Origin: a virus
Lineage: Duplodnaviria > Heunggongvirae > Uroviricota > Caudoviricetes
Virus record (IMG/VR): IMGVR_UViG_2579779007_000009
Coordinates: 1 to 32,407 of that record
Length of the DNA stretch: 32,407 nt
Reading direction: 5' to 3' (one strand)
Shown here: piece by piece, positions 1-5,904 of the stretch
Position numbering within the stretch: position 1 is the stretch's first letter
How the letters are laid out: every line of letters starts with the position of its first letter
The notes under the pieces: model-generated
What the model saw: only the letters and a program-made list of their open reading frames with translations
Database searches by the model: none
What the model was told of the DNA's origin: nothing
Position numbers and translations under genes: made by a program

Positions 1-996
1 TTATGGACGCATTATGGACATTCCTGACACCGGGTTAAGAGTCACAGCATCTTGTAAGAAATCCGGTGCAAAGTGTGCGTAGGTCATAGTTTGCTGAATG
101 TTAGAATGACCCAGGATGCGCTGCAATGTGATTATGTTACCTCCATTCATTATAAAATGTGTGGCAAATGTATGCCTCAAAACATGCACTGCCTGTCCGT
201 CAGGTAAATCGGGTTTTACTTCCCTGAGAGCGTTGCGCACTTTGTAGTAACTGGCATTAAAAAGCCTGCCTGAGTTTTTGGTCTTGATCCGTTTAATCAG
301 GTCCTGCGAAACGGGAATTGTCCTGCGCTTTCCGTTTTTAGTTTTCATAAACGTAACCATCTGGTTAATGATGTGTTCAGCTTTTAAATTAGACACTTCA
401 CTCCAGCGTCCACCAGTAGAAAGGCAGACCAGAGTCGCATTTAATTCATCACCATCGAGCATGGATAACAGCCGTGTAATCTCTTCACTGGACAAAAAAG
501 CCATTTCTGTAACAGCTTCACGTAATCGCTTAACCTCACGGAACGGGTTGTGAGAATGGTATTCACCGGCGTCAATTAACTTGGTGAACATCCCGCTCAT
601 TATTGCCAGATGCCGATTTACGCTGGCTGGTTTTAGACCATCGTTCATCATTACAACGCGATAATCAGTTATCGTTTTCTTTGTTAGCTGGTCAGCTCTG
701 GACACTCCCATTTCTGCAAATTTGGCGATTATTGTCGTCAAACGCCCCCGTTCAATATCTCCACGCTCATGTGATTTTCCGTGATATATCCACCATCTGC
801 CTAACAACTCTGTAAGAGTTCGGCGGTCGGCTGGCTTCTCCAGCCACTCTTTGTTGTGGTAGTTAACCAGTACATGACGTTCGAATGCTTGAGCTTCACC
901 TTTAGTTTTAAATTTCCGCCTGATACGTTTTCCATCTGCACCCTGCGGTCTGACGTCCACTTCATAACGACCATCATCGAGCTTTTTAATAGACAT
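1..996 (-). CDS. int: Tyrosine-type site-specific integrase (P2 Int-like), 331 aa
   Basis: Full ORF with stop at 1-3; C-terminal catalytic region with HVLRHTFATH and LGHSNIQQTMTYAHF (R/H/Y catalytic residues); position next to repressor C as in P2. Confidence 0.92.
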   Translation of the reverse strand: MSIKKLDDGRYEVDVRPQGADGKRIRRKFKTKGEAQAFERHVLVNYHNKEWLEKPADRRTLTELLGRWWIYHGKSHERGDIERGRLTTIIAKFAEMGVSRADQLTKKTITDYRVVMMNDGLKPASVNRHLAIMSGMFTKLIDAGEYHSHNPFREVKRLREAVTEMAFLSSEEITRLLSMLDGDELNATLVCLSTGGRWSEVSNLKAEHIINQMVTFMKTKNGKRRTIPVSQDLIKRIKTKNSGRLFNASYYKVRNALREVKPDLPDGQAVHVLRHTFATHFIMNGGNIITLQRILGHSNIQQTMTYAHFAPDFLQDAVTLNPVSGMSIMRP

Positions 997-1089
997 AAAG
1001 CCCTCCGATGACGCTGTTTACTTCTACTACTTGAAAATTAATGCAATTTTCTTTCGTACATTTACTGCACACATATGCTGAATAAATCG

Positions 1090-1401
1090 TCAGCCAGTCT
1101 TTTGGTCTGAGTGGTGCAAGGTTGTTGAGTCTTGCCCAATGTGCGCGAGCGCCGGGGCTATTTGTCCGCCAGCGGGATCAGTTTCATCAAACATGAACCA
1201 GTCACGGTACTTGCGAAATCTTTCTGGCTTGAAAAATTTCATGCCTGCGTCAAAAGACATCTTTACTTTTCCCTGCTCATATCCAGCATAGGTGTTGTAG
1301 TTAATTCCAGTTAATTCAGCAACTTGCTTCCTTGTCATTCTTTCTGACTCCCGAATAAGTGCGAGTTTCTCTGCTTGAGATGTGATTTGTGTATTTGACA
1401 T
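1090..1401 (-). CDS. C: Immunity repressor C (HTH, XRE-type), 103 aa
   Basis: ORF 1090..1449 trimmed to internal Met (MSNTQ...) by codon arithmetic; HTH-like RKQVAELTGINYNTYAGYEQG; divergent from cox as in the P2 switch. Confidence 0.8.
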   Translation of the reverse strand: MSNTQITSQAEKLALIRESERMTRKQVAELTGINYNTYAGYEQGKVKMSFDAGMKFFKPERFRKYRDWFMFDETDPAGGQIAPALAHIGQDSTTLHHSDQKTG

Positions 1402-1505
1402 GAATTGTCGTATCTCGTAATTTATGTTGCATGCGACACGCCAGAACAACGCAGAGCGGCTTCAAATAGCTCTGGTTGAATGGCACCAAAGTTGAGGATA
1501 TCAAA
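1402..1505. promoter_or_regulatory. Divergent immunity switch region (expected Pc/Pe promoters and C/Cox operators)
   Basis: Roughly 100 bp between divergently transcribed C and cox; assigned by synteny with the P2 lysis-lysogeny switch; individual sites not resolved. Confidence 0.5.
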
Positions 1506-1862
1506 ATGAGTATTGGATCAGAAATGAATAACGATGTTGGAGAAAAAGTATCTGATCTCACAAAAAGTAAAAAATGTGACATCAAACTTGCAGCCGCACC
1601 GTCGGATTTGCTCTCGAAAGAGGGATTTGCTCTTTACATCGGTAAGACGCCTCGTGCAGTTGCTGAAATGGCGAAAGCAGGCAAGTTACCAGCCTTTTAT
1701 ATGACGGACCCATTAAAGCCGGGCGGTCATGCTGAGTTATGGATTAATCGCCGTGAGTGGGACAAGTACGCAGCCCAACTAGTTGATGAAGCTCCGACAG
1801 AATGGCATGACTGGAAAAATCGCATTAGTTACAGCAAATCAAGACATGGCCGTGCGGCTTAA
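1506..1862 (+). CDS. cox: Cox-like excisionase / early-operon regulator, 118 aa with N-terminal extension relative to P2 Cox
   Basis: Region LYIGKTPRAVAEMAKAGKLPAFYMTDP recalls the P2 Cox HTH segment; start chosen at ATG 1506 preceded by GAGGA; start is uncertain (1476 and 1524 are alternatives). Confidence 0.65.
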   Translation: MSIGSEMNNDVGEKVSDLTKSKKCDIKLAAAPSDLLSKEGFALYIGKTPRAVAEMAKAGKLPAFYMTDPLKPGGHAELWINRREWDKYAAQLVDEAPTEWHDWKNRISYSKSRHGRAA

Positions 1863-1872
1863 GGTGGAAAGG

Positions 1873-2043
1873 ATGAACGAGCCTCGTTGTATTGCTCAGT
1901 TATTGCGTAACGAAAGCCCCAAGGCGATTGACTTCACCATCACCCACGGTAAGGGGCGTAAGGGAATCATTATCCGCACCAAAAAACAGAGTCCGTTAAA
2001 AAAGGCTCTGACCTTTCTGAAAAGCCGGAGGGTATGGAAATGA
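1873..2043 (+). CDS. Small early hypothetical protein (position of P2 orf78), 56 aa
   Basis: ATG 1873 preceded by GGTGGA; in frame with ORF 1783..2043; a longer 78-aa form starting at 1807 and overlapping cox is possible. Confidence 0.4.
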   Translation: MNEPRCIAQLLRNESPKAIDFTITHGKGRKGIIIRTKKQSPLKKALTFLKSRRVWK

Positions 2044-2540
2044 CAGTGATGACGCTCAATCTCGTTGAAAAACAGCCAGCAGCTATGCGCCGGATAATTG
2101 GTAAGCATCTTGCCGTTCCTCGCTGGCAGGATACATGTGATTATTATAATCAGATGATGGAGCGCGAACGGTTAACGGTTTGCTTCCATGCTCAGTTAAA
2201 ACAGCGTCACGCAACGATGTGTTTTGAAGAAATGAACGACGTCGAACGTGAACGACTGGTATGTGCAATTGATGAATTGCGTGGTGCATTCTCAAAACGC
2301 CGTCAGGTTGGCGCAAGTGAGTATGCATATATTAGTTTTTTAACAGTCAGTCAGCGTCGTACTTTATTTATGCATGCCGGATTGACTGAAAAAGAATTCA
2401 ACCAGCCATACTGGCGAATTAATGAAGAGTCATGTTACTGGCGTGATGCTTTATTCCGTGCATTACGTGAATTATTCAGTCTGTTTGAGTATGCACCGAC
2501 AATTCTGACGTCGGTAAAACCAGAGCAATATCTGCATTAA
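2040..2540 (+). CDS. B: Replication protein B (DnaB-helicase loading), 166 aa
   Basis: Translation MTVMTLNL...AVPRWQDTCDYYNQMMERERL matches recalled P2 gpB; GGAGGG 7 nt upstream of ATG 2040. Confidence 0.85.
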   Translation: MTVMTLNLVEKQPAAMRRIIGKHLAVPRWQDTCDYYNQMMERERLTVCFHAQLKQRHATMCFEEMNDVERERLVCAIDELRGAFSKRRQVGASEYAYISFLTVSQRRTLFMHAGLTEKEFNQPYWRINEESCYWRDALFRALRELFSLFEYAPTILTSVKPEQYLH

Positions 2541-2603
2541 GTAATTAACCAGAGTTTTTAACGCACTTAATTGTGCGGGGCTTCTTTTTGCCTGGAGAAA
2601 GTC

Positions 2604-2828
2604 ATGCATACAGTTTCTGAAAATCAGTGCGGTAAATACGCATTACTGCTGCAACAGGCCAGAACCGAAGCACAGGCCGACGCAGCGACGCGCTTTTCTT
2701 CTCATCTTGACGCCATGATTCGCCACATCACAAAGGCGGAGTTATCCCGCGTGGAGATAGTCGAGCTGCTCAGTCAGGAGTCGGAAAAATTTCACAATAT
2801 CGGATTGTCTCGCGGGGAGGTGCTTTGA
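2604..2828 (+). CDS. Small early hypothetical protein (position of P2 orf80), 74 aa
   Basis: ATG 2604 preceded by GGAGAAAG; the listed ORF begins at a TTG at 2571 with no ribosome-binding site. Confidence 0.6.
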
Positions 2829-3130
2829 TGTCCTGTTCTCGTTCAGTTGTATTACTGAATAACGCCTTAAAAATCGCCGTTATGAAAAATGGCGATTTAT
2901 CTCTTATTCAACTTGGTCTTGATAAAGAAAAACGCGAAATAACTGAGTCTGTTATCGCGATTTATCAGAACGAATTAAATCTCCTGTCTGATGTGGTCAA
3001 TTTACTTGTTAAACGCGCTGTATTTCACAAGAAAATCTCCTCCGTGGATGAACTGACAAAATTAACGACAGAAATTGCCAGCTATTGCGCTGATGAATTT
3101 AAAAAACTTAACGACAAAAGGAGCTGGTAA
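2828..3130 (+). CDS. Small early hypothetical protein (position of P2 orf81), 100 aa
   Basis: ATG 2828 overlaps the upstream stop (TGATG); GGGGAGG upstream. Confidence 0.6.
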   Translation: MSCSRSVVLLNNALKIAVMKNGDLSLIQLGLDKEKREITESVIAIYQNELNLLSDVVNLLVKRAVFHKKISSVDELTKLTTEIASYCADEFKKLNDKRSW

Positions 3131-3354
3131 TGCCGGACAACGTAGATTTTATTCAGGAACAACAGGCTGAATTACTGGAGCGTCAGATTAACGCGGCAAG
3201 GGTAAAACATTGCGGTGCTTCTGCGCTGGTTTGCGAAGAGTGTGACGCGCCAATACCTGCTGCCCGTCGTGCGGCTTATCCGTCAGCCACGCGTTGTGTT
3301 TCCTGTCAGTCAGTCTTTGAAGCAAAAAACAAACATTACCGGAGAACGGCATGA
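3130..3354 (+). CDS. TraR/DksA-family C4 zinc-finger protein (position of P2 orf82), 74 aa
   Basis: Two Cys pairs, CEEC and CVSC, in the C-terminal half of a short protein; AGGAG upstream; start overlaps the upstream stop (TAATG). Confidence 0.7.
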   Translation: MPDNVDFIQEQQAELLERQINAARVKHCGASALVCEECDAPIPAARRAAYPSATRCVSCQSVFEAKNKHYRRTA

Positions 3355-3626
3355 GTATTCGTATTGAAATTGGCGAACGTTATGTCGTTACCAGTGACAG
3401 CTTTCAGTTTATTCTCCACGAGAAAAAGAGAGCGGAAAGCGGTAAAAACGCCGGTCAGGAATGGCTGGCGGTGGTTGGTTATTACCCGAAATTAAGCCAG
3501 CTCGTTTCCGGCCTGATGCATCACGATATTCTGACCGGAAGCGCAAAATCTTTTGCTGATTTAAACGCGCAGGTTGAGCAACTCAGCAAGCGTTGTTCAG
3601 AGGCTTTTGGCTCACATGGACGTTAA
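3351..3626 (+). CDS. Small early hypothetical protein (position of P2 orf83), 91 aa
   Basis: ATG 3351 overlaps the upstream stop (ATGA); GGAGAA upstream. Confidence 0.6.
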   Translation: MSIRIEIGERYVVTSDSFQFILHEKKRAESGKNAGQEWLAVVGYYPKLSQLVSGLMHHDILTGSAKSFADLNAQVEQLSKRCSEAFGSHGR

Positions 3627-5904
3627 AGCCTCCGGGCGTTTTGTCCCTCCGTCAGCATTTGCCGCAGGCACCGGTAAGACGTTTACCGGTGCTTATGCAT
3701 GGAACGCGCCACGCGAGGCCGTCGGGCGCGAAAGACCCCTTACACGTGACGAGATGCGTCAGGTGCAAGGTGTTTTATCCACGATTAACCGCCTGCCTTA
3801 CTTTTTGCGTTCGCTGTTTACTTCACGCTATGACTACATCCGGCGCAATAAAAGCCCGGTGCACGGGTTTTATTTCCTCACATCCACTTTTCAGCGTCGT
3901 TTATGGCCGCGCATTGAGCGCGTGAATCAGCGCCATGAAATGAACACCGACGCGTCGTTGCTGTTTCTGGCAGAGCGTGACCACTATGCGCGCCTGCCTG
4001 GAATGAATGACAAGGAGCTGAAAAAGTTTGCCGCCCGTATCTCATCGCAGCTTTTCATGATGTATGAGGAACTCTGCGATGCATGGGTTGATGCGCATGG
4101 TGAAAAAGAATCGCTGTTTACGGATGAGGCGCAGGCTCACCTGTATGGTCATGTTGCTGGCGCTGCACGTGCTTTCAATATTTCCCCGCTCTACTGGAAA
4201 AAATACAGTAAAGGACAGATGACCACGAGGCAGGCATATTCTGCCATTGCCCGTCTGTTTAACGATGAGTGGTGGATTAGTCAGCTTAAAGGCCAGCGTA
4301 TGCGCTGGCATGAGGCGTTACTGATTGCTGTCGGGGAGGTCAATAAAGACCGTTCTCCTTATGCCAGTAAACATGCCATTCGTGATGTGCGTGCGCGCCG
4401 CCAGGCAAATCTGGAATTTCTTAAATCGTGTGACCTTGAAAACAGGGAAACCGGCGAGCGCATCGACCTTATCAGTAAGGTGATGGGCAGTATTTCTAAT
4501 CCAGAAATTCGCCGGATGGAGCTGATGAACACCATTGCCGGTATTGAGCGTTACGCCGCCGCAGAGGGTGATTTGGGGATGTTTATCACGCTGACCGCGC
4601 CGTCAAAGTATCACCCGACACGTCAGGTCGGAAAAGGCGAAAGTAAAACCGTTCAGCTTAATCACGGCTGGAACGATGAGGCATTTAATCCAAAGGATGC
4701 GCAGCGTTATCTCTGCCGTATCTGGAGCCTGATGCGCACGGCATTCAAGGATAATGATTTACAGGTCTACGGTTTGCGTGTCGTCGAGCCACACCACGAC
4801 GGAACGCCGCACTGGCATATGATGCTTTTTTGTCATCCACGCCAGCGTAACCAGATTATCGAAATCATGCGTCGCTATGCGCTCAAAGAGGATGGCGACG
4901 AAAGAGGAGCCGCGCGAAACCGTTTTCAGGCAAAACACCTTAACCGGGGCGGTGCTGCGGGGTATATCGCGAAATACATCTCAAAAAATATCGACGGCTA
5001 TGCACTGGATGGGCAGCTCGATAACGATACCGGCAGACCGCTGAAAGATACTGCCGCGGCTGTTACCGCATGGGCGTCAACGTGGCGCATTCCGCAATTT
5101 AAAACGGTTGGCCTGCCGACAATGGGGGCTTACCGTGAACTACGCAAATTGCCTCGCGGCGTCAGCATTGCTGATGAGTTTGACGAGCGCGTCGAGGCTG
5201 CACGCGCCGCCGCAGACAGTGGTGATTTTGCGCTGTATATCAGCGCGCAGGGTGGGGCAAATGTCCCGCGCGATTGCCAGACTGTCAGGGTTGCCCGTAG
5301 CCCGTCGGATGACGTTAACGAGTACGAGGAAGAAGTCGAGAGAGTGGTCGGCATTTACGCGCCGCATCTCGGCGCGCGTCATATTCATATCACCAGAACG
5401 ACGGACTGGCGCATTGTTCCGAAAGTGCCGGTCGTTGAGCCTTTGACTTTAAAAAGCGGCATCGCCGCGCCTCGGAGTCCTGTCAATAACTGTGGAAAGC
5501 CTGCCAGCAGTGATACTTCGTTACTGGCTCCCACGCCTTCTGAACACGCCGCAGCAGTGCTTAATCTGGTAGATGACGGTGTTATCGAATGGAATGACCC
5601 GGAGGTCGTGAGGGCGCTAAGGGGCGCATTAAAACACGACCTGAGAACGCCAAATCGTCAGCAAAGAAACGGAAGCCCGTTAAAACCGCATGAGATAGCG
5701 CCATCGGCCAGACTGACTAGGTCGGAACGAATGCAAATTACCCGTATCCGCGTTGACCTCGCTCAGAACGGTATCAGGCCGCAGCGATGGGAGCTTGAGG
5801 CGCTGGCGCGTGGCGCGACGGTAAAGTTTGACGGACGAAAGTTTATATATCCAATAAGTGGTGAGTGGAAGCAGTTTTTTAGTGGCTTTGATCTTTTTAA
5901 GTAA
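3616..5904 (+). CDS. A: Replication initiation protein A (rolling-circle nicking endonuclease), 762 aa
   Basis: Long ORF trimmed to Met at 3616 (MDVKASGRFVPPSAFAAGTGK...); contains VVEPHHDGTPHWHMMLF and YIAKYISKNIDGY, recalled from P2 gpA. Confidence 0.92.
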   Translation: MDVKASGRFVPPSAFAAGTGKTFTGAYAWNAPREAVGRERPLTRDEMRQVQGVLSTINRLPYFLRSLFTSRYDYIRRNKSPVHGFYFLTSTFQRRLWPRIERVNQRHEMNTDASLLFLAERDHYARLPGMNDKELKKFAARISSQLFMMYEELCDAWVDAHGEKESLFTDEAQAHLYGHVAGAARAFNISPLYWKKYSKGQMTTRQAYSAIARLFNDEWWISQLKGQRMRWHEALLIAVGEVNKDRSPYASKHAIRDVRARRQANLEFLKSCDLENRETGERIDLISKVMGSISNPEIRRMELMNTIAGIERYAAAEGDLGMFITLTAPSKYHPTRQVGKGESKTVQLNHGWNDEAFNPKDAQRYLCRIWSLMRTAFKDNDLQVYGLRVVEPHHDGTPHWHMMLFCHPRQRNQIIEIMRRYALKEDGDERGAARNRFQAKHLNRGGAAGYIAKYISKNIDGYALDGQLDNDTGRPLKDTAAAVTAWASTWRIPQFKTVGLPTMGAYRELRKLPRGVSIADEFDERVEAARAAADSGDFALYISAQGGANVPRDCQTVRVARSPSDDVNEYEEEVERVVGIYAPHLGARHIHITRTTDWRIVPKVPVVEPLTLKSGIAAPRSPVNNCGKPASSDTSLLAPTPSEHAAAVLNLVDDGVIEWNDPEVVRALRGALKHDLRTPNRQQRNGSPLKPHEIAPSARLTRSERMQITRIRVDLAQNGIRPQRWELEALARGATVKFDGRKFIYPISGEWKQFFSGFDLFK

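Follow-up and report, generated by a model that had tools for sequence, protein, structure and literature searches.

Two questions are raised by the immunity switch of this prophage: where does its cox gene begin, and does the protein that results depart from its family? The window, meaning the whole stretch of 32,407 nucleotides that was analysed, holds a divergent gene pair at 1090-1862 that the original prediction described as a C repressor facing an unusually long Cox-like protein, in an immunity group other than that of phage P2. The first 4 kb follow the P2 early-region gene order when the ORF map is set against annotated P2. An integrase gene is followed by C on the minus strand and by a divergent cox, and then by homologues of P2 orf78, B, orf80-83 and A. 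The four genes that define the region are as follows.

1..996, minus strand: integrase, 331 aa, with Pfam Int_N and Phage_integrase matches and 53% identity to P2 Int; part of the swapped int-C-cox module
1090..1401, minus strand: C immunity repressor, 103 aa; its start codon (ATG 1401) overlaps a conserved TTGACAT block
1506..1862, plus strand: cox, 118 aa, the long or 'larger' form, Pfam Phage_Cox; the same start is used by PGAP and in pro147
1873..2043, plus strand: orf78-like gene, which marks where the swapped module ends on the right and P2-like DNA starts again

By nucleotide comparison, identity to P2 is 98.7% across 1873-2100, and 1-1872 has no near match in P2. This border indicates that the whole int-C-cox module was exchanged. 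The immunity region (1000-2100) is 98-99.5% identical in phages pro147 (NC_028896), S164 (ON239131) and OU784746, and the Cox protein of these three and of E. coli prophages such as that of APEC O1 is identical to the Cox of the window. There is no substantive difference between these prophages and the window; the annotated cox start alone varies. The region is carried by 221 of 5426 complete E. coli genomes, and the exact Cox and the exact C protein each occur on at least 1000 contigs. The switch is therefore an ordinary one, governing lysis and lysogeny in a P2-like E. coli prophage of a common type, and it is already catalogued. We consider it highly probable, taking the best explanation as a whole, that positions 1-1862 are the int-C-cox regulatory module of a P2-like (Peduovirus) prophage with an immunity class other than that of P2.

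Some observations concern the prophage and its records. The same prophage adjoins pflA in APEC O1. OU784746 is titled 'Peduovirus P2' despite an int-C-cox module unlike that of P2. The window begins exactly at the int stop codon (position 1) and ends exactly at the ogr stop codon (32407), so that the attachment site, the Int arm sites and the Cox site lie just outside it, on both sides. Two copies of a direct repeat, ATTATGGAC, span the int stop codon (TTATGGACGCATTATGGACAT; locus L006 496-520 and window 1-25), and their position corresponds to the P' arm Int-binding sites of P2.

The repressor is recognizable at a distance. Its helix-turn-helix (HTH) matches in Pfam are marginal (HTH_3, 23.3 bits against a cut-off of 23), and comparison with the P2 C structures 2XCJ/2L49 gives E=4.7e-24, in line with the original description of a divergent 103-aa HTH repressor. 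Alignment to P2 C gives 47% identity. The N-terminal HTH half has diverged and the C-terminal half is conserved, with GQIAPALAH invariant. Published P2-like immunity classes group C proteins that are at least 95% identical (PMC3448106), and membership of P2's class I would take the same operator sequence as well. The window C falls outside this range, and the P2 operator half-site GTTTAGAT was not found in the switch. With so low an identity between the two repressors and no P2 operator in the switch, the phage is, to judge by these sequences, heteroimmune to P2. The expectation of a separate immunity group, with operators not identical to those of P2, was thus upheld. PhiECO5 of E. coli UTI89 (class IX) was considered as the matching class and rejected; it has a 173-aa Cox-family protein (L026 1561-2082), longer still than the 118-aa form, beside a 113-aa C.

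The start codon of cox can be placed by comparison. We aligned 16 related loci from eight enterobacterial genera (Escherichia, Scandinavium, Pseudescherichia, Erwinia, Serratia, Rahnella, Yersinia and Pectobacterium), and the element that anchors the start is present in all of them.

1494..1498, plus strand: cox Shine-Dalgarno sequence GAGGA, with a 7-nt spacer to ATG 1506; kept as GGAG(G/A)A in 16/16 loci

Every locus has GGAG(G/A)ATAGCAA(A) followed by ATG, with GTG replacing ATG in two, and the start lies 33-46 codons upstream of the LLSKEGF motif. Distant loci have an in-frame TAG immediately upstream of this start, and no longer form is possible there. Before the conserved core of the window gene, the only in-frame start codons are TTG 1476, ATG 1506 and ATG 1524. 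With no in-frame ATG, GTG or TTG from 1524 up to the core, the gene has no way of encoding a 91-aa form; a standard-length Cox from a downstream Met was the outcome that the original prediction had set against its own choice of ATG 1506. That choice is well supported by the sequence comparison, and we take ATG 1506 as the start.

It could still be argued that translation begins downstream, giving a Cox of about 91 aa, and that 1506-1580 is non-coding promoter or operator DNA that is open by accident. The segment is AT-rich (GC 0.34 against 0.50 in the core) and hypervariable, and it probably overlaps the upstream half of the promoter Pc discussed below. Against this, the next possible start codon after 1524 is the first Leu of LLSKEGF; it lacks a Shine-Dalgarno sequence, and starting there would remove the conserved first strand of the fold. 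The cox frame is open in 107 diverged homologues, where the chance of roughly 30 codons staying open is roughly 0.24 per independent sequence. The block of Shine-Dalgarno sequence and ATG keeps its position, the conserved motif K-R/K..[IV][KR]L precedes the point where P2 Cox would start, and dN/dS in the closest pairs is 0.1-0.26. Together these points make a downstream start very improbable.

An upstream start is more improbable still. The frame is open from 1470, and the S164 record annotates cox from TTG 1476, for a protein of 128 aa. That codon has no Shine-Dalgarno sequence upstream and falls inside a candidate Cox box. In most related loci the upstream frame is closed or the codon is missing, and both RefSeq/PGAP and the pro147 record use 1506. 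A comparable case is the D8-type Cox (L003 1984-2355; also L008), which is annotated from an upstream ATG as 123 aa; the clade-wide Shine-Dalgarno and spacer block indicates a GTG five codons downstream, giving 118 aa. With ATG 1506, the cox start is settled for a very common type of E. coli prophage on which deposited records disagree (118 against 128 aa, and 123 aa for the D8 type).

From this start, Cox is a clear member of its family. Residues 26-106 score 102 bits with Pfam Phage_Cox (PF10743; cut-off 27.5), and the profile of its clade matches the P2 Cox structure 4LHF with E=1.4e-28. AlphaFold, run on a 55-sequence alignment, predicts a core of strand, helix, helix and two strands forming a wing, followed by two helices (pLDDT 84-95 over residues 31-100). 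The top Foldseek match of this predicted core is again 4LHF (TM-score normalised to target 0.70). The window Cox thus shares with P2 Cox its Pfam family and its fold, a winged helix with C-terminal helices, and its gene has the same place, at the head of the early operon, facing away from C and adjacent to int. It differs in that core identity is only 35% and in its greater length. P2 Cox has 91 aa (L004 1915-2190) and Wphi Cox 90 aa. Residues 7-90 of the P2 Cox structure align with positions 31-112 of the long-family profile, so the long form has about 24 extra N-terminal residues.

The original prediction was right that this Cox is longer than that of P2, and the description of the added segment as charged fits, since MSIGSEMNNDVGEKVSDLTKSKKC is polar and charged, with 4 K, 2 E, 2 D and 4 S. 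Calling the protein unusually long was mistaken. Among 5.8 billion proteins, 137 homologues were found, and nearly all that are full-length have 116-142 aa. About 22 deposited phage records contain the long form, including isolates grown on Yersinia pestis and prophage-derived records. Moreover, Nilsson et al. (2011) had already recognised two groups of Cox proteins, one with P2 and Wphi and one of 'larger' proteins, that share few residues (PMC3448106). The larger 'group 2' proteins have an N-terminal winged HTH, and the window Cox, at 118 aa, fits their description, since the P2 and Wphi proteins have 91 and 90 aa. One prophage of their dataset comes from Pectobacterium atrosepticum SCRI1043, which encodes a close homologue (P0100, 120 aa; 66% identity over 85% of the window Cox). 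The window Cox class would probably belong to group 2. The extension of the larger Cox is not itself analysed in that paper (PMC3448106). A length of 118 aa is normal for a large, already described enterobacterial Cox clade; P2's 91-aa protein is one of several length forms of the family, and the long form makes up a large clade.

The DNA between the two start codons carries the signals of the switch. On its early side the following elements were placed.

1395..1423, plus strand: early promoter Pe, with -35 TTGACA at 1395-1400, a 17-nt spacer and -10 TAATTT at 1418-1423; predicted transcription start near 1430
1406-1413 (plus strand), 1425-1432 (plus strand) and 1431-1438 (minus strand): candidate C operator half-sites TGTYGYAT, which flank the Pe -10; the direct copies are 19 bp apart

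Pe is the top plus-strand match, at the same offset, in the window and 11 related loci. The scan used an approximate position-weight matrix with P2 and Wphi as controls, and it recovered P2's annotated Pe. A consensus promoter scan of 1300-1700 returned no site at its threshold, though Pe is obvious by eye. The Pe -35 overlaps the C start codon and the -10 lies at C_ATG+17 in every locus and in the P2 control. P2 Pe therefore has the same geometry as the window Pe, including the 17-nt spacer. The C-cox spacer is also of similar size, at 104 bp in the window, 102-109 bp across the clade and 114 bp in P2; that of Wphi is 152 bp and non-coding.

Three of the eight TGTYGYAT matches in the 32-kb window cluster at 1406-1438, a count to be read with the fact that the motif was defined after the sequence had been viewed, and the copies agree at only 6/8 positions. 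No P2-style perfect direct repeats occur around Pe at 8/10 matches. Class-specific direct repeats, 19 bp apart, are found at the same positions in loci of three other classes (L003, L008 and L014), and the spacing in the P2 control is 22 bp. This arrangement suggests that the TGTYGYAT half-sites around the Pe -10 are the C operators. Wphi differs from it as well: its operators are 34 nt apart (PMC1904263), compared with a predicted 19 nt here. The proposal that the architecture of 1402..1505 may differ from P2 was therefore only partly correct. Both the sequence and the spacing of the candidate operator repeats are unlike P2, whereas Pe has the P2 geometry and the spacers are of 104 and 114 bp.

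Further along the spacer are the elements that may serve Cox and the opposing promoter.

1459..1477, plus strand: candidate tandem Cox boxes GCTTCAAAT-AGCTCTGGTT, TCTA-type with a 10-bp period; putative
1495..1503, minus strand: candidate Pc extended -10 TGATATCCT, antisense to the cox ribosome-binding site; predicted transcription start near 1488
1518-1523, minus strand: -35-like TTCTGA of the candidate Pc, inside cox codons 5-6

A tandem TCTA-type block is conserved in 12 loci that belong to different immunity classes and genera. The window block GCTTCAAATAGCTCTGGTT (1459-1477) matches 16/19 bases of GCTTCAATTGGCTCTAGTT (L006 474-492), which adjoins the int stop codon on the attP side in the same type of prophage; a match of this quality is expected about once by chance in 3.9 kb without a prior location, and the box pattern was defined after the sequence had been viewed. 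The P2 record annotates Cox binding next to int, at a position equivalent to the GCTTCAATTGGCTCTAGTT repeat. Repeat boxes with a 10-bp period at both places, the switch and the flank of int, would correspond to the sites that P2 Cox occupies (PMC3936717); the pattern expected for this Cox type is several direct-repeat boxes spaced 10-11 bp apart at Pc and at attP. The P2 cox-box, TTAAA(G/C)NCA, is unlike the TCTA-type box of the window. The numbers differ too: the switch has two conserved tandem candidates, and identical prophages have three beside int on the attP side, against at least six per site in P2. Conservation of the boxes across classes would fit recognition by the conserved Cox core.

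For the leftward promoter Pc, an extended -10, TGnTAT(C/T)CT, is the best minus-strand candidate in 10/12 loci by the position-weight-matrix scan, and TGCTATYCT is invariant across genera. Conservation of the part complementary to GGAGGA is explained by the ribosome-binding site alone. Wphi served as a control. It has convergent Pe and Pc, and its Pc candidate, the extended -10 TGTTACCCT near the cox start, resembles TGATATCCT. The Wphi element predicts a Pe/Pc transcript overlap of about 80 nt in Wphi, compared with the published 82 nt (PMC1904263); the overlap predicted for the window is about 58 nt. P2 differs, as its Pc -10 is TATAAT, 38 nt upstream of cox, while the candidate of the window is an extended -10 only 6 nt upstream. 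Our hypothesis is that Pc uses the extended -10 antisense to the cox ribosome-binding site. Reading the conserved motif as a -35, TTGCTA, was rejected by inspection of the alignment, since no consistent -10 follows it across the loci.

If Pc is placed in this way, the promoter reaches into the segment of cox that P2 lacks.

1506..1598, plus strand: Cox N-terminal extension (residues 1-31), of which residues 1-24 extend past the N terminus of P2 Cox; an acidic/polar disordered tail, which is followed by a K-K/R..I-K-L motif (disorder predicted)

AlphaFold assigns pLDDT below 50 to residues 1-23, and the first 24 or so residues are accordingly predicted to be a disordered acidic tail. The variable N-terminal part has a net negative charge in 96% of the 107 homologues, and the length of the extension is held near 31 residues. 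A basic motif follows in the same set, with Lys at -10 in 73/107 and Arg/Lys at -9 in 88/107. It reads K, R/K, two free positions, an invariant [IV], [KR], an invariant [LI] and [SA], and then runs into the fold. The extra length is a clade-wide feature and, to judge by these comparisons, is translated. Composition also sets the segment apart, as extension GC is 0.32-0.47 against 0.48-0.57 for the core in 15/16 loci. By the Nei-Gojobori method, core dN/dS is 0.01-0.05. The closest pairs give 0.1-0.26 for the extension, and most pairs, which are saturated, give about 1. The values near 1 leave room for a weak or absent protein-level function of the acidic part. Judged by sequence divergence, no other segment of the switch evolves as fast as the tail.

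Such rapid change could mean that the tail sets immunity specificity, by recognising class-specific DNA at Pc or by binding the cognate C, and that it co-varies with class. The hypervariable block that contains the tail is indeed bounded on one side by the conserved C-terminal half of C and on the other by the conserved Cox core. At synonymous sites the tail can be far more diverged than the core; between L008 and L010, pS is 0.14 in the core and 0.77 in the extension, where pN is 0.50. This contrast indicates that the extension has a history different from that of the core and travels with the exchanged immunity block. The pairing of tails with repressors argues the other way. L003 and L010 are 84% identical in the N-terminal, DNA-binding half of C and 30% in the tail; for L003 and L019 the values are 82% and 20%. 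The tail is therefore not coupled to C type. Its predicted disorder, and the conservation of both the candidate Cox boxes and the Cox core across classes, also speak against a role in specificity, which we regard as unlikely. We infer instead that the role of the tail is to modulate how Cox binds DNA or forms filaments, and that immunity specificity is set without it.

There are two further ways to view the acidic part, and both involve Pc. The first treats it as a functionless by-product: the reading frame was extended 5' over DNA constrained by Pc, and only the basic arm matters to the protein. Low GC and low third-position GC fit this view, as does a dN/dS near 1 in many pairs. The first 14 or so codons fall within the RNA polymerase footprint expected for the candidate Pc, and P2 and Wphi, with Cox proteins of 91 and 90 aa, keep this DNA non-coding in spacers of 114 and 152 bp. 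The net negative charge in 96% of homologues, the length near 31 residues and the dN/dS of 0.1-0.26 in the closest, unsaturated pairs speak against a by-product, and we consider this account doubtful.

The second, which we put forward as a tentative reading, is that the cox ribosome-binding site and first codons are overprinted on Pc, with the extended -10 (TGnTAyCCT) antisense to the Shine-Dalgarno sequence and the -35 and upstream region in codons 1-14, and that the product was recruited as an acidic disordered tail that, with the basic arm, tunes the formation of Cox filaments on DNA. If this reading is true, the same 90 bp or so would be under promoter, translational and protein constraints at once, and the triple constraint would explain why these 90 bp are always open and yet hypervariable. 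If confirmed, it would provide a small and tractable case in which three elements of a genetic switch (promoter, ribosome-binding site and disordered protein tail) share one piece of DNA. Beyond correct annotation the extension matters little; its modest interest lies in the function of the tail and the probable overlap with Pc.

The elements described above suggest how the switch could work. A weak leftward promoter, Pc, would produce the 103-aa C. C would repress the strong rightward Pe, most likely by way of the TGTYGYAT half-sites that flank its -10. The Pe operon begins with cox, whose 118-aa product is made from ATG 1506. The conserved core of this protein, a winged helix and two helices, probably uses the tandem 10-bp boxes at 1459-1477 as nucleation sites, together with the similar boxes beside int in attP. 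From these boxes Cox would shut off Pc and direct excision. The conserved basic K-R/K..[IV][KR]L arm is predicted to lead into the first strand of the winged helix, and the first cox codons probably lie inside the Pc promoter.

Several other elements were discarded. Where the conserved Cox core begins, GGATTTGCTCT is present as two exact 11-nt copies in direct orientation (1604-1614 and 1623-1633, 19 bp apart). This repeat is probably due to chance; the copies are in different reading frames, and D8 and YpM_117 do not preserve them at synonymous sites. A hairpin resembling a terminator (1611-1624) falls within the conserved coding core and was likewise treated as chance. Rfam gave no match in window 1-4000, and the cox leader shows no significant fold (z = -1.6). 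Two database entries for this Cox should be read with care. The pro147 Cox (L002 1609-1965) is misannotated as 'COG0184 ribosomal protein S15P/S13E' in a note to the record. The Enterococcus faecium entry WP_416104578 is a partial copy of this E. coli Cox and probably reflects assembly contamination.
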